From positions 1 through 32,734 of the forward strand of contig DF237738.1 of NCBI GenBank assembly GCA_000708835.1: 32,734 nucleotides of DNA, given 5' to 3'. Below the pieces are notes generated by a model. It searched no databases, was not told the origin of the DNA, and worked only from the letters and a program-made list of their open reading frames with translations. This document shows positions 6,409 to 28,678 of the stretch, in pieces. A program made the translations under genes and the position numbers. The stretch comes from Klebsormidium nitens (lineage: Eukaryota; Plantae; Klebsormidiophyceae). Every line of letters starts with the position of its first letter. Positions within the stretch are counted from its first letter, which is position 1.

Positions 6409-6463
6409 GCTCTGCTTTCTGCGATCGAAATGTGCTACATTTTTTCCGCACAGGCTTCATAGC

Positions 6464-6715
6464 ATGGCTCTGAAGACTGTGGCAGTCAGGCAGCGCGACG
6501 CGGCGTTGCGCCTGTGTGACCATGTTGTGCAGGCGTTGGAGGTGCACGACGCTTCTTCTGATGAGATGATTTCGGAAGGCTCGCCGATCAATAGGTCCGG
6601 TGAAGGTCCGGTTGTCACTTCACTGACAAAGATTGCCGACCTTAAAGGTCGGTCTTTCGTACTGACCAAACGCGGATTTGAGCAGACCGCCGCGGAGGAT
6701 TTGAAGCGCACGTGA
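6464..6715 (+). CDS. Hypothetical 83-aa ORF whose last 25 codons derive from a primase-helicase C-terminal remnant
   Basis: The C-terminus DLKGRSFVLTKRGFEQ matches the primase C-terminus DLKARAFGIALTKRGFQQ (22600 onward). Confidence 0.4.
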   Translation: MALKTVAVRQRDAALRLCDHVVQALEVHDASSDEMISEGSPINRSGEGPVVTSLTKIADLKGRSFVLTKRGFEQTAAEDLKRT

Positions 6716-7929
6716 GTCGCGCGTACGAATACTTACGGTTATGTTCCCTGGTAGAGTAGGTATAATTCAAAGATGGTGAAGAAGCCATCGCAGACCAAAA
6801 ATGCGATTTACTTGAGGGAGCTGAGGGCCAAGGCAAAGGCAGCCAAGGGTCCCAAGCCTCAGAGGCCTCTCATCCCACCACCCCAGGGTGCTGAAGCCAC
6901 GACGCTATGGAAGCAGCACCACGCCTACCAGACCTACTATGGCAGGCCCGATGGGCAGATCTGGAGCGCCAAGCTCGGCAAGGTCCTCCAAGGTACGTTG
7001 CACCCCAACGGCTACAATCTCATCAACATCGACGGGAAGATGGTCAGGAGGTCCCGTTTCAACCTGTCCCTCTCCCAAGGGAGAGCCATCGGGGAGGGCA
7101 TGGAGTGCGACCATATCGTCCCCATCAGTAGAGGAGGTGGGGACGCCTGGTCCAACCTGCAGGAGCTCACGAAGGAGGCTCACAGGCGCAAGACGGCCCT
7201 GGACAACCCTGAGGCAGGTACGAAGCGTGGGATCACCATGGGCGTTCCCATCATCGCGAGCCACGCGGCCACCGGGGACGATACCCGCTTCGATTCGGTG
7301 ATTGCGGCGGCCAGAGAGCTGAAAATCCATCACGTATTCATCGAACGGTCTCTGAGGGTGAGACGATCAGGGGTGACTACGTCTTCTCATATACCCCGGA
7401 GCACCTGGCCGAGCAGGCCGACCTTCCTGGCGAGAGGTGGCTGGAGGCCGTCAGCAGCTGGGGCCTGCTCCCCAAGATCAGGGCCAGCGACCGCGGTAGG
7501 ATCCAAGACTCCAGAAGGAGGCGGAGCTACGGCTGTGACAAGCACGGTTACAAGGTGTTTGGGGCCGCGATCGATAAGAAGAATAGGGACCTCAAGGTGC
7601 ACGACGTCATCGCGAGGACCTTCCTCGAACCCCCTCCCTCTTCGGAGCATACACCCGACCACATCAACGGAGACCCCTCCGACAACCGCGTGGAGAATTT
7701 GCGCTGGGCCACTCCGACGGAGCAAGGCCGGAATAAGAGTAATAATCGCCGCGTCATCCAGCTGGATTCGGTCACCGGACATCACTTGGTGGTCTTCGGA
7801 AGCATAGCGGAGGCCGCAGAGGCCGTTCGGATTTCAGAGAGCAATATTCGCGCTGTAGCAGGAGGCCTTAAACGCATTGCTGGCGGATTCAAGTGGATTT
7901 ACTTAGAGGCACTTCACACTTAGGGACAT
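6638..7929 (+). mobile_element. Double-HNH cassette copy 1 (primase remnant + 55-bp leader + HNH gene + CTTAGGGACAT)
   Basis: Leader 6718-6772 is 52/55 identical to 22731-22785. The terminal 11-mer is at 7919-7929. Confidence 0.75.
6773..7923 (+). pseudogene. Tandem double-HNH endonuclease, frameshifted at about 7355
   Basis: Paralog of 16644-17777 and 22786-23910. It reads CTGAGGGT where copy 3 has CTGAAGGGT (1-bp deletion); the rest of the protein is in the next frame. Confidence 0.9.
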
Positions 7930-7980
7930 AGACAACCATGATGCCACAATATGATTGATGATGTATTAAAAGAATAGTAT

Positions 7981-12477: not shown

Positions 12478-12903
12478 ATGTCCATAGACGTAGGCGCCCT
12501 TTTAAACAATGTAAACAGTTTCAGGAGGAGTCACAGTGCCCCAGCAGTGCAGTGGGATGCAGGCATCGCCTCCGTATCTCAGGCCTGGGCCGACCGTAAG
12601 AGATATGCCCACAGCGGTACTTCGAATTACGGAGAAAACCTCGCAAAGGTCTGGGCCAAGGAGGCTGACTTCAAGACCGCAATCTCACTGTGGGCAAAAG
12701 AATTGGACGCGTACAACTATGATTCTCCTAGTTTCAGTCCGACGACGGGTCATGGGACGGCGCTGGTCTGGAAATCGAGTACTAATATCGGCGCGGGTGT
12801 GTCTCAGCTGGCGGACGGATCTTATTTCTACGTCATGAACTTTGCACCACCAGGAAACGTGAGAAGTCAAGAGCTCTTTAGGCAGAATGTGACGCAAAAA
12901 TAA
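12478..12903 (+). CDS. CAP/SCP (PR-1/GAPR-1-like) domain protein
   Basis: Motifs N.FR..H.AP.V.WD, YGENLA, W..E...Y.Y, GHGTALVWK and Y.PPGN (here FAPPGN). Confidence 0.9.
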   Translation: MSIDVGALLNNVNSFRRSHSAPAVQWDAGIASVSQAWADRKRYAHSGTSNYGENLAKVWAKEADFKTAISLWAKELDAYNYDSPSFSPTTGHGTALVWKSSTNIGAGVSQLADGSYFYVMNFAPPGNVRSQELFRQNVTQK

Positions 12904-13957: not shown

Positions 13958-15709
13958 ATGAACGTCCTCGTCCTACTGCTTGCTGGTCAGATTTGTTTAG
14001 GGCAACTCAGCTCAGCTCACCCGAGCATCGATTATCAGTCTGCCCTCTCGACGGGCTTACTATTTCTCGACGCGCAGCGAAGCGGGAAGCTCCCTCCGGA
14101 GCAACCGATCCCTTGGCGCAGTGACTCTTGCCTCGGCGACGGCGCTGATCACGGCATCGACCTGACGCAGGGCTATTTCGACTCTGGAGACTTTTGCCTC
14201 TTCGGCCTCCCTCTCGCCTACACCGTGACCATGCTCTCGTACGGTTTGGTAGAGTATGGCACGTTGTATGGCCCCAACTACGCGCCGGCTTCCGACGCCG
14301 TCCGGTGGGGCACTGACTGGTTGATAAAGGCGCACGCATCCCCCAATGAGCTTTACGTACAGGTGGGAGACGGCAACATAGACCATAAATGCTGGCAAAG
14401 GCCCGAGAACCTGACCACACCGAGACCTTCTTTCGCAGTGAACGTCACCAGTCCAGGAACGGAACCTGCAGCAGAGGCCGCAGCGGCCCTCGCTGCGGCA
14501 TCGATTGTCTTCAGAACGTCGGACCCTGCATACTCTCAGACCTTGCTGGTTCAAGCCGCGCACCTGTTCCAATTTGCAGACAAGTACCGTTTAACTTACG
14601 CGGTTTCGGTGCCTCAGGCAGCAGCCTTTTACAACTCCTACTCTGGTTACGGCGACGAGCTCCTGTGGGCTTCGGCCTGGCTGTTCAGAGCCACGTCCGA
14701 TCCGGTCTACCTCCGGTATGCAACCGGCCCGAATTTCGCTGACCCGTCGCTGGGGTGGCAAAACGCCGTCACCGAATTCAGCTGGGACAGCAAGCTAGCG
14801 GGAGCGGTCGTTCTCTGGAGCCAGCTGGCTCCACCTGGCGCTTCGGTCCCTCTCGATCATTACAGGCAGGTTGCAAACGACTTCGCATGCCATTACGTGG
14901 CACCCAACGGTGTGCAAAAGACGCCGGCTGGTCTCGCTTGGCTGCGCGAATGGAGCCCGTTGCAGTACGTCACGAGCAGTTCCTTCTTGATCGCGGCCTA
15001 TGCGGACCACCTAGGGAATGCCACCGTCACCTGTCCAGATCGGGCCTACTCTGCTTTCGAGTTGATTTTTTACAGCCAGGGGCAGGCCGACTACATATTG
15101 GGGTCGAACCCGCTCAGCTTGAGCTACATGGTCGGCTTCACTGCATCGTATCCTACCCACGTCCACCATCGCGCTGCGTCCATACCCCAAGACGGGATCG
15201 AATACACCTGCGATGGCGGCTTCCAATTCTTCTCGACACCAAAACCCAACCCTACCATCGTTGCTGGGGCGATCGTGGGCGGTCCGGATGCGTCGGATGG
15301 CTATTTGGACGTCAGGAGCGAATTTCAACAGTCTGAGCCCAGCACGTACACCTTGGGGTGCTTCCTCGGTCTCCTTGCGAGGCTGTCTGGTAGCGTTCCT
15401 GGTGTGCCGGTGGCGAGCTCTGGCGCGCCTCCCACAAGTGCGCCCCCAAGCGTCGCTCCTGGATCAGCACCTACCGCTGCCCCGAGCATTGGCGCGCCTC
15501 CCCCGAGTGTTGGGCCCGGTGCGGCACCTACACCGGTACCTAGCGCAAGCGCCTCGGCCCCAAGCGTCGCTCCTGGATCAGCACCTACGAGAGTTCCTAG
15601 CGCGCCCCCAAGTGTTGCTCCTCCCAGCGCGGCACCTACGCCGGTGCCTAGTGCAAGCGTAGGTCCTCCTGGGTTTGTACAATGTATGTGTGCTTGCAAC
15701 GGATTTTGA
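13958..15709 (+). CDS. Plant-type GH9 endo-1,4-beta-glucanase with signal peptide and Pro/Ser/Ala-rich tail
   Basis: Motifs LFLDAQRSGKLP, GYFDSGD, LYVQVGDG..DH.CW.RPE, YGDELLWA, SWDSK, HHR and SEPST. Intronless. Confidence 0.95.
   Translation: MNVLVLLLAGQICLGQLSSAHPSIDYQSALSTGLLFLDAQRSGKLPPEQPIPWRSDSCLGDGADHGIDLTQGYFDSGDFCLFGLPLAYTVTMLSYGLVEYGTLYGPNYAPASDAVRWGTDWLIKAHASPNELYVQVGDGNIDHKCWQRPENLTTPRPSFAVNVTSPGTEPAAEAAAALAAASIVFRTSDPAYSQTLLVQAAHLFQFADKYRLTYAVSVPQAAAFYNSYSGYGDELLWASAWLFRATSDPVYLRYATGPNFADPSLGWQNAVTEFSWDSKLAGAVVLWSQLAPPGASVPLDHYRQVANDFACHYVAPNGVQKTPAGLAWLREWSPLQYVTSSSFLIAAYADHLGNATVTCPDRAYSAFELIFYSQGQADYILGSNPLSLSYMVGFTASYPTHVHHRAASIPQDGIEYTCDGGFQFFSTPKPNPTIVAGAIVGGPDASDGYLDVRSEFQQSEPSTYTLGCFLGLLARLSGSVPGVPVASSGAPPTSAPPSVAPGSAPTAAPSIGAPPPSVGPGAAPTPVPSASASAPSVAPGSAPTRVPSAPPSVAPPSAAPTPVPSASVGPPGFVQCMCACNGF
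15430..15670 (+). repeat. Degenerate APPSV(A/G)PGSAPT repeats in the GH9 tail
   Basis: CCAAGCGTCGCTCCTGGATCAGCACCTAC occurs twice, with related variants. Boundaries are approximate. Confidence 0.8.
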
Positions 15710-15792: not shown

Positions 15793-16647
15793 ATGGTGTG
15801 TGTGCCTTCTATTAGTACGTTTGCGGCCGAGCGGGGCATTACTCGCTCGTCCATGGAGACTATGCTCAACATGTTCAATTCTGACGACTTCCCCCGGATT
15901 CGGATATCTGATTTGGACCTCTACGTGTGTGCTATGACGCACAAGAGCACGTTGAAAGAGTACTCTGCAGCCCAAGGCTCCAACGAGAGACTCGAGCTCT
16001 TGGGCGACAGCGTATTAGGATTGATCGTCACAAAGTACATATTCGATAGGTACACCGGTGAAGATGAGGGGTTTATGACCAGGATTCGCACCAAATTGGT
16101 ATGCGGTGAGGCGTTGTCGGCGTGGGCCTTGAAGCTCGGGCTTCAGGAATTCTTGATGATGAATTCCAAGGCCCTTCAACGGCAGTGGAACTTGAACCCG
16201 AGCAAGCTTGAGGATGCTTTCGAGGCCTTGGTCGGAGCCTTATTCGAAGACTGTGGGATCTCAGCATGTCGCAATTTCATTTACAATCTTCTGAAACGCG
16301 TAGATTTCGTGGAGGTGGAACGAGACACGAATTGGAAGGAGTCTCTGATGCGGCACCTCCAGGGAATGTACGCAAACATGTCTAGTAACAATATCGGGCA
16401 GGACATGTTTACGCCGATGTATGCCGTGGAGGACTTTGGAGGAGACGGCAACGACGTGAAACAATTTCGCGTGAGTGTGAGCATAGGTGGGAGGGTTTTT
16501 GGCCGCGGAATCGATCGTAAGAAGAAGGCAGCGGAGCAGATGGCAGCACATTCTGCACTTTGCCAGATTACTGAAAGCGGACGTCTCCCGCTATATTCCA
16601 ACAAATCGACCCTCCGAGTTCCCAATCTCGGTATAGTATGTCCCTAA
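15793..16647 (+). CDS. rnc: Ribonuclease III with dsRNA-binding domain
   Basis: Signature NERLELLGDSVLG, EGFMTRIRTKLV, DAFEALVGA and dsRBD GRG..KKAAEQMAA. The start codon is uncertain. Confidence 0.93.
   Translation: MVCVPSISTFAAERGITRSSMETMLNMFNSDDFPRIRISDLDLYVCAMTHKSTLKEYSAAQGSNERLELLGDSVLGLIVTKYIFDRYTGEDEGFMTRIRTKLVCGEALSAWALKLGLQEFLMMNSKALQRQWNLNPSKLEDAFEALVGALFEDCGISACRNFIYNLLKRVDFVEVERDTNWKESLMRHLQGMYANMSSNNIGQDMFTPMYAVEDFGGDGNDVKQFRVSVSIGGRVFGRGIDRKKKAAEQMAAHSALCQITESGRLPLYSNKSTLRVPNLGIVCP
16559..16634 (+). repeat. 76-bp direct repeat, copy A (inside the RNase III 3' end)
   Basis: 70/76 identical to 17873-17948. Confidence 0.95.
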
Positions 16648-17872
16648 GTGTGGAGTGCCTCTGAATAAATCCACTTAAATCCGCCGGTAGCGAGTCGGCG
16701 GCCCGCTGCTACATTGCCGATATTACTTGCAAATATCCCAAGAGCCTCTGCGGCCTCAGCGATGGTACCAAAGACCGCCAACTGCGCTCCGGTGATCAGA
16801 TCCAGCTGGATAACGCTGCGATTTGACTTCTGATTCCTGCCTTGTTCCGTCGGAGTGCCCCAGCGCAAATTCTCTGAGCGGTTGTCGGACCGATCTCCGT
16901 TGATGTGGTCGGGAGTATGCTCCGACGAGGGAGGGGGCTCGAGGAAGGTCCTGGCGATCACGTCGTGCACCTTGAGGTCCCTCTCATTCTTATCGATCGT
17001 GGCCGAAAATCGCTTGTAGCCGTGCTGATCTCTGCCGTAGCTCCGCCTTCCTCTGGATTCCTGGATCCTACCGCGGTTGCTGGCCCTGATATTGGGGACG
17101 AGACCCCAGCTGCTGACGGCCTCCAGCCACGTCTCGCCGGGCAGGTCGGCCTGTTCGGCCAGGTGCTCCGGAGTATATGAGAAGACGTAGTCGCCCCTGC
17201 TCGTCAGGCCATTCAGATACCTATCGATGACAGTGTGGTGGATTTTGAGCTCTCTGACCGCATCACGAACCGAATTGAAGCTGGTCTCGACTCCGGTAAC
17301 CACGTGGCGCGCGACGATGGGGATGCCCGTGGTGATGCCCGACTTCTTGCCCGCGTCGGGGTTGTCCGAGACGGTCTTGAGCCTGTGATCCGGCTTTGAA
17401 AGCTCCTGCAGGTTGGCCCAGTCATCTCCACCTCCTCTACTGACGGGGACGATGTGGTCGCACTCCATCCCCTCCTCGATGGCGCGTCCGAGGGAGAGCG
17501 ACAGGTTGAAACGAGACCTCGGGCCGTCCTTCCCGTCGATTTTGATGTAGCCGTAGCCATCGGATCTGCTGAAACCTTCGATGACCCGGCCGGTCTTGGC
17601 GCTCCAGACCCTCCCGTCTGGTCTGCCGTAGTAGGCCGGGTAGGCGTGGTGCTGTTGCCACCCCTGGAGCACGGGTGGTGGGATCAGAGGCTTGGGACCC
17701 TTGGCTGCCTTTGCCTTGGCCCTCATCTCCCTCTGGTAGATGGCATGATTGGTCGGTGAGAGCTGCTTCTTCACCATTGTCGAATTATACCTACTCTACC
17801 AGGGAACATAACCGTAAGCATTCGTACGCACGGCTTGCGTCAGGTCTTTGAATCCGCGCTGCTCAAATTGCG
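16638..17872 (-). mobile_element. Double-HNH cassette copy 2, flanked by a 76-bp target duplication
   Basis: Leader 17778-17832 (51/55 identical to the copy 3 leader), terminal ATGTCCCTAAG at 16638-16648, primase remnant at about 17835-17880. Confidence 0.85.
16644..17777 (-). CDS. Tandem double-HNH endonuclease with NUMOD1-like modules (intact, 377 aa)
   Basis: HNH-1 is CDHIVPVSRGG..DWANLQ..H and HNH-2 is PDHINGDRSDNRSENLRW...N. Each is followed by an F.S/TI.EA...L.I helical module. Confidence 0.92.
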   Translation of the reverse strand: MVKKQLSPTNHAIYQREMRAKAKAAKGPKPLIPPPVLQGWQQHHAYPAYYGRPDGRVWSAKTGRVIEGFSRSDGYGYIKIDGKDGPRSRFNLSLSLGRAIEEGMECDHIVPVSRGGGDDWANLQELSKPDHRLKTVSDNPDAGKKSGITTGIPIVARHVVTGVETSFNSVRDAVRELKIHHTVIDRYLNGLTSRGDYVFSYTPEHLAEQADLPGETWLEAVSSWGLVPNIRASNRGRIQESRGRRSYGRDQHGYKRFSATIDKNERDLKVHDVIARTFLEPPPSSEHTPDHINGDRSDNRSENLRWGTPTEQGRNQKSNRSVIQLDLITGAQLAVFGTIAEAAEALGIFASNIGNVAAGRRLATGGFKWIYSEALHT

Positions 17873-17948
17873 TTTGTCAGATCACGGAGAGCGGACGTCT
17901 CCCGCTATATTCCAACAAATCGACCCTCCGAGTTCCCAACCTCGGCAT
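17873..17948 (+). repeat. 76-bp direct repeat, copy B (orphan RNase III 3' end abutting the ATPase stop)
   Basis: Encodes the same CQITESGRLPLYSNKSTLRVPNLGI peptide as copy A. Confidence 0.95.
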
Positions 17949-17949
17949 T

Positions 17950-18735
17950 TCACTTTGACTTGCGCACCCTGATGCCGTTGCTGGTGACAACGACCTCGTT
18001 TCTCTTTTGCAGCTCTGAATCTGCGTACGTGCGATTGTGATGTGCCCAATATGCCGGCGCCCCGATCTTGAAGTGCTCGTGGATGTCTGCCTTGTACCAG
18101 AATATTGCATCGGTCGGTTCCGTGCTCTGGACGGTGTTGTCCAACACGAGGCATTCGTGCTTGCTGGTACACGCCTTGAAGACCGCCTCAAACTGTGAGA
18201 ACGTCTTGAACACGCCAAACAGGTGGTCGTAGTACCTCTTACGGTTGGCGAGGATCGGGTCGTTGTATATGAAGACGTAATCAATGTTGGATCGGACGGG
18301 TGGAGGTATGTCCATGATGTACTGAGACGCCAAGATGACCATGAGGCCGAAATGGCGGCCATTCATGTATAGATAGCGCATGGTGTCAGACTTCATGATG
18401 TTTTGCTTGAAGAGGCAGTCATCCAGGAGGAGGAAGACGCTGGAGTCTTTGACCTTGAGTCTCGTGAGATTCTTCTGCCTGGCGATTAGTTTTTTGATGA
18501 TCTCCTCGTCGAAGGTGTCGTATATGAAACTGTCTGGTATGAACTTGCGGTAGAAGCCGTTGCCGTCCTCTGAGCCGCTTATGACGATTCCGGCTGGAAT
18601 CTGCCGCTTGTGGTACAGTATGTCGGCTATGAGGGTCGTCTTCCCGACGCCCCGTCTGCCAATGACTACGACCGTCTTGTGGTCCTGAAGCTTTGACATG
18701 TCAAACTTTTTGATGTTGAAATCGCCTGCAGCCAT
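17950..18735 (-). CDS. A32-like virion DNA packaging ATPase
   Basis: Walker A GRRGVGKT, ISGSEDGNGFY, Walker B LLLDDC, MNGRH. ATG at 18735. Confidence 0.95.
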   Translation of the reverse strand: MAAGDFNIKKFDMSKLQDHKTVVVIGRRGVGKTTLIADILYHKRQIPAGIVISGSEDGNGFYRKFIPDSFIYDTFDEEIIKKLIARQKNLTRLKVKDSSVFLLLDDCLFKQNIMKSDTMRYLYMNGRHFGLMVILASQYIMDIPPPVRSNIDYVFIYNDPILANRKRYYDHLFGVFKTFSQFEAVFKACTSKHECLVLDNTVQSTEPTDAIFWYKADIHEHFKIGAPAYWAHHNRTYADSELQKRNEVVVTSNGIRVRKSK

Positions 18736-19593: not shown

Positions 19594-20010
19594 ATGGACG
19601 CTTCTGCCTTGGTGAACGCGGCGATGAAGCTCGACCCAAAAGTACTGGTTCCCATTCTGTTGGGCTTGGGCCTCATCGCGTTCCTCAGTCCGCTGATCAG
19701 CGTGCTGCAGCTCTTTGGCATCCTGCTGGTGCTGACGGCAGCCCTGCTCTACGTTCGTCAGGACGATGTATCGAACAAGCGCAAGCGCCTGCAGCAGGGT
19801 AACAGGGATCTGGACCCCGCAACGGCCGCGATGGCTGCCGCAGAGGCGGCGACGGCCGCCGCCCGAGCTGCGAAAGGCTCGAAGCAAGTCGAGCTGTTGC
19901 CAACGTTGGACATGTTCTACGACAAGAGCAACATCGGGGCCTATATATCGGACAATATGTTTGGTGCGGCGTCTGCCCATGATTCGACACCACAGGCACC
20001 CCGGTCCTGA
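19594..20010 (+). CDS. Hypothetical membrane protein
   Basis: Two hydrophobic segments at residues about 15-50. Confidence 0.65.
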   Translation: MDASALVNAAMKLDPKVLVPILLGLGLIAFLSPLISVLQLFGILLVLTAALLYVRQDDVSNKRKRLQQGNRDLDPATAAMAAAEAATAAARAAKGSKQVELLPTLDMFYDKSNIGAYISDNMFGAASAHDSTPQAPRS

Positions 20011-20088
20011 GTCACTGCGCAGCGCTTGAGCTTAGGGATTACGGGTACTTAGGAGGATAGTGCGCTTCAATTAAGTAACCAATTATCT

Positions 20089-22728
20089 ATGTATTTATCA
20101 GGATCCATGAACCCCACGGCGTCCATCACGGCTACGATCAGGGACCTCGCAGGGGCAGAATTCTACGCCATTCCAGTCCGCATCTACCTGTCCTCGGGCA
20201 AGAAGAAGTCGCAGTTTCCACGCACGTGGAAGAACTTGGACACCGTCTCCACTTGGAAGGCCCAGATCGCAGACGTCATCAAGGAGTGCCCGAACGCGAA
20301 CAGCGTCGCGATATTGACGGGCATCAGCGACCTGTTTGTCCTCGACGTCGACCTCATGGCCTCCGCCGGCAAGAGGTCGGGTTTCGACCTGTGGGAGGTT
20401 CTGGTCGCCGAGCATGGTTCGCCCGACACGCTCCAGGCCAAGACGGGCTCGAACGGTCGGCATTTCTACTTCCGGAGGAACGACTCTACAGGATTAACGC
20501 GCCGCCGGAATTTCGCTGGCCTGAAATTTGAACGCGAGCGGTACGCCATCGATGGAAGAGGGGAGGGCGGAGTCATCTTCGCCCCTCCCAGCAGCTACAA
20601 GGACGAGGACGGCATCACCTACTCGTACGAGTGGCAGAACGGGGACCCACACTGTGGCTGCAACCCCATGCCACAGTGGCTGATCCAGTTGGTCAACTCC
20701 CAGGGGTCGGACGAGGTGCCCCCTCTGATCGGTGGCACTCCCGACGACGAGCCGCTGTCTCCCGAGCCCATATCGGCCCCGAGGAGCCCTGTCGTTGATT
20801 AGAGTGCCATCGTGCGCGAGATGCGGCAGCTCTTGCTAGAACGGGCCGGCGATTCCACGAGCACGTTTGGCGGCACGGTAGAGCACGGCTGTCTCGGCAC
20901 GTACTACTGCTTTCGAGTACATGGGCCCAGGCAATGCTACTTTGGTCGTCAGCATTCCGGCAGCAATAACTTTAACTGCCTCAAGAGGGGCAAACGTGTC
21001 TATGTGCGGTGCCATGGCAGCGAATGCAGCCATGAACCGCCTCGCTACCTCGGAGATCTGTCCCTACAGTCCTCATTGCTCGACGCCTGCCGCGAGCCCC
21101 TGCACGATGTGGACGACTACTCGGTCCTGAACGTGCGTCAGATGCAGGGCGAGGAGCTCCGCCTGTTGATCGCCTTCCTGACAGAGAACGTAGGAGACTC
21201 CTATAGCGGTCTCGGCCGTATCTTTGGCTACGTCTTCGCCAAGGACGGCCGGATCCTGGTCACCGGGCCCAAGAAGCAGTTCTACTACTGGAACGGCCGG
21301 GTCTGGGTGCTGGACGAGTCCAACCGCGTCGTCACCACCTTCTCCTACAAGATGTCGACGCTCTTCAAGTGGTACGACACCCGACGCGATCGGCGCTTCG
21401 AGCGCAAGCTCAGCGAGAAGGGCCTCGTGAACGGGACCGAGAGTGTTGCCCAAACGGTCGCAGCCCTCGATAAGCGAGGCTCCAAGGCCATCATCAAGGC
21501 CTGCTGGGACGAGGTGGACGCCGAGCTGCCGCCGAACCGCATCAACGTCAACTCCCCCAAGGAGGCCCGAGCTTGCCTTGACTACGTCACGAGCGTCTTG
21601 TACGATCCCGAGATGATCAAGCTCATGGATTGCGACATCGACTCGGTCGGCTGTCCGAACGGCGTCCTCGACCTGAGGACGGGCATTTTGAGCTTCGCGC
21701 ACCCGAGCCAGCTCTGCACCCGCTCGACCGGCGTACGTTACATGGGGTTGAGCCACAACACGGACCGCTTCGACGCGTTCGTGATGGATCTCTTCAACTC
21801 CGACGAATCGATCGTCCGGTGGCTCCAGCTGTTCCTCGGTTACGCTCTGACAGGTCATACCAGCGAGGAGATCTTTTGCATCTGGTATGGAGCCGGGAGC
21901 AACGGCAAGAGCGCTCTCAAGATGGCTCTCCAGAAGGCGTTCGGGTCATACTACACGCCCATGAGCAAGGACTGCATCATCAAGGCCGGTGGGAAGCGGG
22001 CCGAAGGAGCCGCCTCCAGCCACCTCGTTGCCCTCAAGGGCGCTCGTCTGGCCCTATGCGACGAGTCCGAGGAGAGCCAGGTCATCAACTCCGCTTGCAT
22101 CAAAGAGATGACGGGTGGAGGTGCGGTCACCTGCCGGGAGCTCTTCCAAAAGTGCGAGAGCTTCGTGCCGACGCACGCCAACGTCCTGCTCACCAACCAC
22201 AAGCCCAGCATAGCCGACGCCGACGGCGGCCTCCTGCGCCGGGTGTCCCTCCTCCCGTTCCGAAATTCCTACAAGGTCGCGGAGGAGGTCGACCCCAACG
22301 ACCCTCACTCCAAGCCGCAGTCCACGCACCTCAAGACGTGGCTGGAGAGCTCGGAGGGAGCCGAGGAGTGCCTGGTATGGGTCGTGCGAGGCAGCGTAGA
22401 ATGGTATGCTCGCCAAAGCGCCAACCCGGCCGCGAAGGTGCTGGCTCCGCTGCCGGCTCCGATGGCGGCCGCTTTCGACGAGTACTTGCGCGAGTTTGAC
22501 GACATGCGCATGTTCTTGAAAGAGTTTTGCGACATCGGGCCGACCTTCGTCGCTCCGTCTGCGGACCTTTTGGCTCGATTCAATGCGGAGATGAATTCCG
22601 ATCTCAAGGCACGCGCCTTTGGTATCGCTTTGACCAAGAGAGGATTTCAGCAGATCGAGTTTACTGTAGATAGGATCAGGCGTCGCGGATTCAAAGGACT
22701 GAAATTGCGAGATATGGCCACGGGCTAA
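20089..22728 (+). CDS. Prim-Pol (bifunctional primase-polymerase) / D5-type SF3 helicase, interrupted by an in-frame TAG at 20800-20802
   Basis: Prim-Pol motifs LFVLDVD, TGSNGRHFYF, IDGRGEGG and APPS. D5 motifs CPNGVLDLRTG, YGAGSNGKS, LCDES, KEMTGG and TNHKP. Both ORFs are in the same frame. Confidence 0.9.
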
Positions 22729-22730
22729 TC

Positions 22731-22785
22731 CGCGCGTACGAATGCTTACGGTTATGTTCCCTGGTAGAGTAGGTATACTTCGAAG
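22731..22785 (+). promoter_or_regulatory. Conserved 55-bp HNH leader (also at 6718-6772 and 17778-17832 on the minus strand)
   Basis: 93-95% identical across the three copies, directly before the HNH ATG. The function is inferred. Confidence 0.65.
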
Positions 22786-23910
22786 ATGGTGAAGCAACAG
22801 GAGCTCTCTCAGACAAAGGCAAAGGCAGCCAATCTTCAGAGGCCTCTCATCCCACCACCCCAGGAAGAAGCCCCATCCAATCAATGGAAGCAGCATCACG
22901 TCTACCTGGCCCACTACGGCAGGCCAGACGGGCAGATTTGGAGCGCCAAGGTCGGCAGGGTCCTCGAAGGTTACGTTGACCCCGATGGCTACTACCGTAT
23001 TACAATCGATGGGAAGCAGGTCCAACGGTCGCGCTTCAACCTGGCACTCTCCCTCGGACGCGCCATCCGAGAAGGATTCGACTGCGACCACATCGTCCCC
23101 GTGAGTAGGGGAGGTGGGGACGCCTGGTCCAATCTGCAGGAGCTGACGAAGGAGGCTCACAGGCGCAAGACGGCCGCGGACAACCCCGACGCGGGCACGA
23201 AGCGGGGAATCACGATGGGCATTTGCATCATCGCACGTCACACGGGAAACGGAGTCGGGTTGCGGTTCGATTCGGTGAAAGCGGTGGAGAGAGAGCTCGG
23301 GATCAGTCACGGAGTCATCGACAGGTCTCTGAAGGGTGCGACGATCACAGGCGACTATGTCTTCTCGTACACCCCGGAGCACTTGGCCGAGCAGGCCGAT
23401 CTGCCTGGCGAGATTTGGCGAGAGGCCGTTAGCCGCCTTGGTCTGCTCCCCAATATCAAGGCCAGCGACCGCGGTAGGATCCAGGACTCCAGAAGGAGGC
23501 GGAGCTACGGCTGCGACAAGCACGGTTACAAGGTGTTTGGGGCCGTGATCGATAAGAAGAGGGACCTCAAGGTGCACGACGTCATCGCGAGGACCTTCCT
23601 CGAACCCCCTCCCTCTTCGGAGCATACCCCCGACCACATCAACGGAGACCCATCCGACAACCGCGCCGAGAACTTGCGCTGGGCCACTGATACTGAGCAG
23701 GGCAGGAATCAGAAGTCAAATCGCCGCGTGGTGCAGCTCGATCTGATCACCGGAGAGCAGTTGGCTATCTTCGACAGTATTGCTGCAGCGGCAGAGACGG
23801 TTGGGATCTCTGCGTGCACTATCACGAATGTAGCAGGGGGGCGCGCCCTTACTGCCCGAGGTTTTGCGTGGCGGTATGCCGAGGATGCACTGCGCAGCGC
23901 TGTTGCTTAG
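22786..23910 (+). CDS. Tandem double-HNH endonuclease (intact, 374 aa), copy 3
   Basis: Same two HNH motifs as copies 1 and 2; ends in CTTAGGGACAT (23906-23916). Confidence 0.92.
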   Translation: MVKQQELSQTKAKAANLQRPLIPPPQEEAPSNQWKQHHVYLAHYGRPDGQIWSAKVGRVLEGYVDPDGYYRITIDGKQVQRSRFNLALSLGRAIREGFDCDHIVPVSRGGGDAWSNLQELTKEAHRRKTAADNPDAGTKRGITMGICIIARHTGNGVGLRFDSVKAVERELGISHGVIDRSLKGATITGDYVFSYTPEHLAEQADLPGEIWREAVSRLGLLPNIKASDRGRIQDSRRRRSYGCDKHGYKVFGAVIDKKRDLKVHDVIARTFLEPPPSSEHTPDHINGDPSDNRAENLRWATDTEQGRNQKSNRRVVQLDLITGEQLAIFDSIAAAAETVGISACTITNVAGGRALTARGFAWRYAEDALRSAVA

Positions 23911-23961
23911 GGACATGCGATACTTACGGAGATGTTAGGAGATCTAGAATAGTCAAGAATC

Positions 23962-28625: not shown

Positions 28626-28678
28626 ACCCTAAAAACCTTGAAACTCTAAAACCCTAAAACCCTAAAACCCTAAAACTC
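28626..28678. repeat. Telomere-like (CCCTAAAA)n / TTTTAGGG tract, about 6 units, 3 consecutive perfect
   Basis: ACCCTAAA AACCTTGAA ACTCTAAA ACCCTAAA ACCCTAAA ACCCTAAA ACTC. Confidence 0.85.

Follow-up and report, generated by a model that had tools for sequence, protein, structure and literature searches.

The primase fossil that precedes dispersed endonuclease genes in a viral stretch of the Klebsormidium nitens genome is best explained, with a probability of roughly 0.7, by the capture of flanking DNA, the captor being an HNH gene of the free-standing homing type in a Klebsormidium giant virus. The scaffold that was analysed over its whole length (32,734 nt; hereafter the window) combines giant-virus genes with three copies of a gene for an I-HmuI-like endonuclease with two HNH motifs. 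These three genes are copies of one unit of about 1.3 kb, which consists of a primase-derived leader, a 55-bp block, the two-HNH gene and a short tail. The viral genes recognized by domain search encode an A32-like ATPase, a capsid-like protein, YqaJ, RNase III, an NAD-dependent ligase and a Prim-Pol/D5_N primase-helicase, and NCLDV core genes of this algal genome are already in print (PMC5294986).

Anatomy of the HNH unit

The interval between the primase and the NAD-dependent ligase, which holds the third HNH copy, is likely the home site of the unit. The unit and its surroundings comprise the following features.

6592..6717, plus strand: leader of HNH copy 1, corresponding to the last ~55 primase codons in decayed form with deletions, most clearly at 6638-6685
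6718..6772, plus strand: 55-bp block common to the three copies, putative promoter region
6773..7923, plus strand: HNH copy 1, frameshifted near 7345-7350
7919..7943, plus strand: 3' tail of the element at copy 1, its first 11 nt common to all three copies
16559..16634, plus strand: RNase III 3' end in use (allele A), from the repeat and allele comparison
16644..17777, minus strand: HNH copy 2, intact, 377 aa, with two HNH motifs and NUMOD modules
17778..17876, minus strand: shared block and truncated leader of copy 2, as far as the RNase III microhomology
17873..17958, plus strand: second RNase III 3' end (allele B), displaced, which carries a stop of its own and continues into the A32 ATPase stop
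20013..20058, plus strand: remnant before the primase that looks like the 3' end of HNH copy 3 with its tail (23/26 nt, 0/5000 shuffles)
20089..22728, plus strand: Prim-Pol/D5_N/P4-type primase-helicase, with the leader-like stretch at 22534-22701
22731..23933, plus strand: shared block, HNH copy 3 (22786-23910) and tail, between the primase and the NAD-dependent ligase

The 55-bp block is likely a promoter region; a 17-nt motif within it matches the region upstream of the ligase at 15 of 17 positions (6 of 5000 shuffles as good). A candidate promoter motif in common with the region upstream of the primase was not significant. Copies 1 and 3 are 96-99 per cent identical over approximately 200 bp (~7500-7700 versus 23470-23670) and 60-90 per cent identical elsewhere, which points to recent conversion between dispersed copies. 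The tail of copy 1, read antisense, resembles the RNase III C-termini of two occupied JGI alleles. Outside the unit, past the leader, the insertion sites share no sequence.

A primase fossil precedes HNH copy 1

A first-pass annotation of the window had described the sequences upstream of copies 1 and 2 as remnants of the primase 3' end, and the leader motifs lie where it had placed them. The resemblance of the copy 1 leader to the primase exceeds chance. Aligned as DNA, leader positions 6630-6717 and primase positions 22596-22730 score 41.2, a value reached by none of 5000 shuffles and by none of 4244 other window segments. Compared as protein, the score of 54 is reached by 1 of 20000 shuffles, and in a wider first test 1 of 2000 dinucleotide shuffles was as good. 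Taken by itself, the part of the leader that precedes 6635 lacks significance (8 of 150 shuffles as good). The gap within the match, annotated as a single codon, in fact spans two.

It is exceedingly improbable that the resemblance is due to chance, or that the leader is the native C-terminus of an 83-aa open reading frame (6464-6715) that ends in it. Such a reading would suit a match that is short and that a profile of primase C-termini fails to detect (E 16-18), but it conflicts with the shuffle controls, with the best-match controls and with the presence of the same leader at a different site in another contig (see below). The 17-residue remnant peptide scores 57, 57 and 54 against the primases of this lineage, the next best values being 35 among 219 proteins compared and 36 in 1.39 million six-frame residues, so the remnant does not match unrelated genes better than it matches primase. 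Since the profile is blind to the remnant, the match is specific to the primase of this lineage. The C-terminal half of the 83-aa frame is the leader of the element, and the frame, which has no Pfam or NCBIfam match, is possibly a gene cut by the insertion. The N-terminal extension of P0008, the sole one to reach far into the leader region, holds no clear primase text.

Among the 16 aligned codons of remnant and primase, 4 are unchanged, 8 show synonymous differences and 4 encode another residue, which bears out the many synonymous differences annotated earlier. Because the codon differences are mostly synonymous, most of the divergence arose while the source of the leader was still coding. 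We therefore consider it likely, from these codon comparisons, that the copy 1 leader was captured from a diverged coding primase allele. Two primases, P0027 and P0147, are closer to the remnant than that of the window by one residue (57 versus 54); neither the true donor allele nor an empty primase-ligase site was found.

The copy 1 leader holds no primase 5' end or upstream terminus: in a comparison with 19900-20200, 3190 of 5000 shuffles score as well. There is also no flanking repeat around copy 1, and no similarity between 6410-6640 and the rest of the window. Consistent with this, the parental termini that an internal-deletion derivative of a transposon would have retained were found neither at 19900-20200 nor at 6410-6640. 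Of the two routes annotated for the remnants, internal deletion thus loses ground and the carrying along of 5' flank gains it, in the form of DNA repair and co-conversion: since the leader lacks the primase 5' end, flank capture during DNA repair is the better fit.

The leader travels with the HNH gene

The leader of copy 2 is shorter. In a wide, unanchored test 76 of 2000 shuffles were as good as its match to the primase, and the figure falls to 0-1 of 5000 only when the comparison is anchored, with gap costs chosen after the gap had been seen. The anchored match upholds the annotated primase text at copy 2 except at its first 8 letters (17873-17880), which also begin a 76-bp duplicate of RNase III; this stretch is therefore a junction and not purely primase. 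A deletion between the two RGF motifs is present in both leaders, as annotated, but the two losses are not identical: copy 2 is without 30 nt, whereas copy 1 keeps 5 nt of the segment and then diverges.

A contig from another study and under another organism label (X5; 5887 nt, depth 2.8) covers RNase III, an HNH gene and A32. Upstream of the HNH gene at the RNase III site it has 114 nt, compared with 91 in the window. Of this leader, 79 letters align to the copy 1 leader at 6592-6690, with 7 other letters and 20 gaps. When rebuilt from the alignment table, from which up to 4 letters may be missing, the X5 leader is collinear with approximately 55 primase codons and scores 56.2, a value reached by none of 5000 shuffles (maximum 38.4). 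It thus matches the primase end better than either leader of the window, and between the RGF motifs it is without 28 nt. The contig does not cover the flanks of copy 1. Because a leader of the copy 1 type stands at the RNase III site in X5, one leader occurs at two unrelated sites and travels with the gene. The annotated descent of both copies from a primase-HNH arrangement is accordingly well founded: both leaders are collinear with the primase end and directly precede the same 55-bp block, and the X5 leader does so with a still better match. In a further X5 record, which corresponds to window positions 22102-22964 and 17146-17523, the primase is followed by an HNH gene with a copy 2-like body that breaks into unrelated sequence.

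The HNH copies might instead have inserted without a leader, the fossil having spread later by ectopic gene conversion from the shared block. The copies are plainly mosaic, and in X5 the HNH bodies at the primase and RNase III sites each resemble the window copy of the other site. Since the copies exchange sequence, conversion among them could have moved leaders after insertion. We nevertheless regard this reading as unlikely: the leader forms the outermost part of the unit, and past it the sites are unlike, so that the same one-sided repair would be needed, and one capture from a primase-linked copy would still be required.

A probable hybrid of two RNase III alleles at the copy 2 site

On either side of copy 2 lies the 3' end of RNase III, as a direct repeat of 76 bp (16559-16634 and 17873-17948). 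All 6 internal differences between the repeats are synonymous (chance 0.0003-0.0008). Because the two repeats encode the same RNase III residues and differ only synonymously, they are best read as two working alleles. As a post hoc hint only, 4 of the 6 differences fall within 13 nt of the junction. The last RNase III codons and the stop sit in the tail of the element (16635-16647), and the allele A 3' end would have arrived with the element. Like the empty allele, allele B continues into A32; it meets the copy 2 leader at a 4-nt overlap within an imperfect microhomology of 8-9 nt. The junction of leader and allele B was not seen among the contig pieces listed.

The site is occupied in the window, in X5 and, judged at the protein level, in two of the three close JGI alleles (P0213 and P0214), which end in the tail of the element. 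The third, P0150, reads into the antisense strand of A32 and matches the window for 6 residues and the stop. It would represent the empty RNase III/A32 site, as read from this one protein C-terminus; the JGI alleles, like about 20 further HNH copies, were compared as proteins.

The repeat might also be taken for a target-site duplication that has drifted, with a transposition-like movement of the element. A direct repeat does flank copy 2 exactly, but the differences between its arms are all synonymous, X5 has a longer leader and gave no alignment with the duplicate at 80-85 per cent likeness, and copy 1 has no flanking repeat. With no repeat at copy 1 and 76 bp at copy 2, there is no constant target-site duplication. 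The domain search of the window returned no transposase or integrase domain, and none of the 25 longest of 189 inverted repeats pairs the ends of the copies as terminal inverted repeats. This reading is therefore very unlikely. What is new here is the combination of the 76-bp RNase III duplication and the microhomology junction, a pattern that one-sided homing between two strains should leave. The duplication, the empty site and the common 3' tail had escaped the first-pass annotation.

The predicted HNH enzyme

Copies 2 and 3 each encode two HNH motifs and NUMOD modules. Pfam families HNH and HNH_3 match above the cut-off, and NUMOD1 and I-HmuI_NUMOD-like also match; beyond HNH and NUMOD no other family was found in the protein. 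The best match to a solved structure is 1u3e (E 7e-7), which we take to be I-HmuI. Across 22 sequences the catalytic positions D107/H108/N122/H131 and D290/H291/N303/N315 are 95-100 per cent conserved, while conservation is only 60-68 per cent in several blocks of 10 residues within the predicted DNA-binding parts. The dN/dS of copies 2 and 3 is 0.36. The AlphaFold model is of low confidence (pLDDT 53, pTM 0.26), and the two halves of the protein gave no alignment to each other in BLASTP (E 0.13). The HNH genes are separate open reading frames between conserved genes, outside introns and inteins, and an Rfam scan of the window gave no match at the gathering score. Judging from these features, the gene likely encodes a DNA-cutting enzyme that behaves as a free-standing homing endonuclease.

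We found 26 relatives of the protein, 24 of them at 62-88 per cent identity (23 of these from JGI records); at E 0.001, the wider HNH-NUMOD superfamily numbers 51,445 representatives. The tree of the HNH proteins is star-like, with 2 of 20 branches supported, and we therefore take no order of events from it. A fusion to the primase C-terminus was not seen among 173 HNH proteins (best score 51, obtained without a shuffle control).

The repeat around the primase and HNH copy 3

The primase and HNH copy 3 together are bounded by a direct repeat (20013-20058 and 23888-23933), in which 23 of 26 nt match and which none of 5000 shuffles equals. The repeats lie 56-58 nt from the start codons of the primase and the ligase, respectively. 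The upstream repeat is kept in relatives, within the N-terminal extensions of P0147 and P0148, and may be what is left of a lost HNH copy or mark one edge of a primase-HNH cassette. Flank capture leaves the 26-46-bp repeat unexplained unless an extra copy has been lost. Two JGI primase fragments from different contigs, P0148 and P0149, which cover the N-terminus, end at the same residue, owing to contig ends or a shared break.

This repeat speaks for an account in which the primase-helicase and HNH genes formed a mobile two-gene unit, as a small circle or a cassette, that integrated before the ligase, and in which the scattered copies are deleted derivatives. The retention of the repeat in P0147 and P0148, the phage/plasmid P4 type of the primase (TIGR01613 above the cut-off) and a K. 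flaccidum row that apparently lacks an entry in the D5 column of a published table (PMC5294986) all agree with it. We consider it improbable all the same, given that the copy 1 leader has no primase 5' end or left terminus, that the primases of relatives have the same upstream sequence, and that sister-lineage primases are 52-56 per cent identical, much like RNase III (57-60 per cent) and as a resident gene would be. A weak match of the 83-aa frame to the Walker B region of the primase (1-2 of 500 shuffles as good, for 2 of 10 primases) was equalled by that of an unrelated HNH protein and found no support in a profile or in DNA comparison. By GC3, the primase-HNH block is not distinct from A32, YqaJ or the ligase. 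Quite doubtful, too, is the bolder version, in which a selfish replicon with a plasmid-type Prim-Pol/SF3 primase-helicase and the double-HNH gene integrated via the 26-46-bp repeat, became the primase-helicase of the virus and seeded dozens of helicase-less derivatives.

Probable flank capture and known homing systems

Under flank capture, the ancestral HNH unit would have sat behind a diverged primase allele, using signals in the primase-ligase intergenic region. A DNA-repair event would have copied the unit, with approximately 170 bp of the primase end, to a new site, and later deletions would have shrunk the fossil. During co-infection, the enzyme would nick or cut unoccupied alleles of neighbouring genes, and repair from occupied genomes would copy the unit and its flank into the cut allele. 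At copy 2 of the window, a one-sided repair may have been homologous within RNase III and closed by a microhomology join inside the leader, which would leave the RNase III end of the donor in use, displace that of the recipient and truncate the leader. Microhomology junctions produced by one-sided homing have been seen in T4 experiments and proposed as a route to ectopic sites (PMC2988022).

The closest parallels in phages are the mob genes of T4-like phages and I-HmuI-type enzymes, which likewise are intergenic HNH-NUMOD genes beside conserved replication genes (PMC2988022). HNH endonucleases of T4-like phages also share with the present case the occupied/empty polymorphism, the co-conversion of flanks and one-sided repair with microhomology junctions (PMC2988022). 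Unlike them, the Klebsormidium element belongs to a eukaryotic giant virus, has two HNH motifs per chain and an activity that is predicted, and its family occupies many sites at ~65 per cent identity and has in common a leader that can be traced to one gene.

In fungal mitochondria, homing endonucleases of Allomyces atp6, Ophiostoma rps3 and Phlebia atp6/cox2 similarly insert at the 3' end of a gene, where an allelic 3' end is added and the original one is displaced (PMC4019555), and an N-terminal version of such a replacement end is described from Tremella (PMC7315562). In contrast to these systems, the Klebsormidium nuclease is antisense to the hybrid gene, and another occupied allele is without the duplication; as X5 lacks it, the RNase III duplication is no fixed part of the element. 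The in-frame duplicated allelic 3' end with its displaced original is present for RNase III and not for the primase piece, which, unlike the fungal replacement ends, is a deleted, non-functional fossil.

The MIGE of Mimiviridae resemble the present unit in having one open reading frame after a short non-coding piece, in many copies (bioRxiv 10.1101/299784). By their description they are set apart by zinc-finger frames and a mode of spread given as unknown, whereas the Klebsormidium frame is an HNH nuclease and the origin of its leader can be traced (bioRxiv 10.1101/299784). HNH genes in giant viruses are themselves well known (PMC13620141, PMC13289167, PMC5871332). In the openly available full texts searched, we found no description of this element and no paper joining Klebsormidium, an HNH endonuclease and a giant virus.

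To date, the routes by which giant viruses acquire free-standing nucleases and MIGE-like elements at new sites have mostly been assumed. The 5' end of the present element records its home site, and the element has both occupied and apparently empty alleles, so its history is unusually readable, and one insertion appears frozen as a hybrid of the RNase III alleles of two strains. The RNase III 3' end near 16559/17873 is a concrete candidate target of the enzyme. On this reading, such elements would move alleles of core genes between viral strains.

State and further content of the viral stretch

A premature stop at 20800-20802 interrupts the window primase at a point where the frame is open in relatives; a contig of run X1, possibly the source of the window itself, crosses this stop without differences. 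This stop and the frameshift in HNH copy 1 suggest decay, and the viral stretch has probably become a degenerating insertion within the algal genome. Exact look-ups of 12 window frames found no identical protein. Scans of viral contigs, metagenome contigs and prokaryote genomes for DNA of relatives gave nothing usable; one viral-contig scan yielded 52 loci, all phage-type primases at 22-32 per cent, which served only as a control set.

A glycoside hydrolase family 9 gene (13958-15709; E 8e-135) has a signal-like N-terminus and Pro/Ala/Ser repeats, and a CAP-domain gene (12478-12903) adjoins it. As both genes are also on the X5 contig, they are part of the viral lineage. Three perfect TTTTAGGG units and degenerate ones lie on the minus strand at 28630-28675, just upstream of a MYND-finger frame; this telomere-like unit, presumably the Klebsormidium telomere repeat, is embedded in an otherwise viral stretch. 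Three leucine-rich-repeat-like units of 84 bp occur in a short frame at 1608-1824, apparently a gene fragment, and a tandem repeat of ~27 bp (383-437) is located upstream of the frame at 428.
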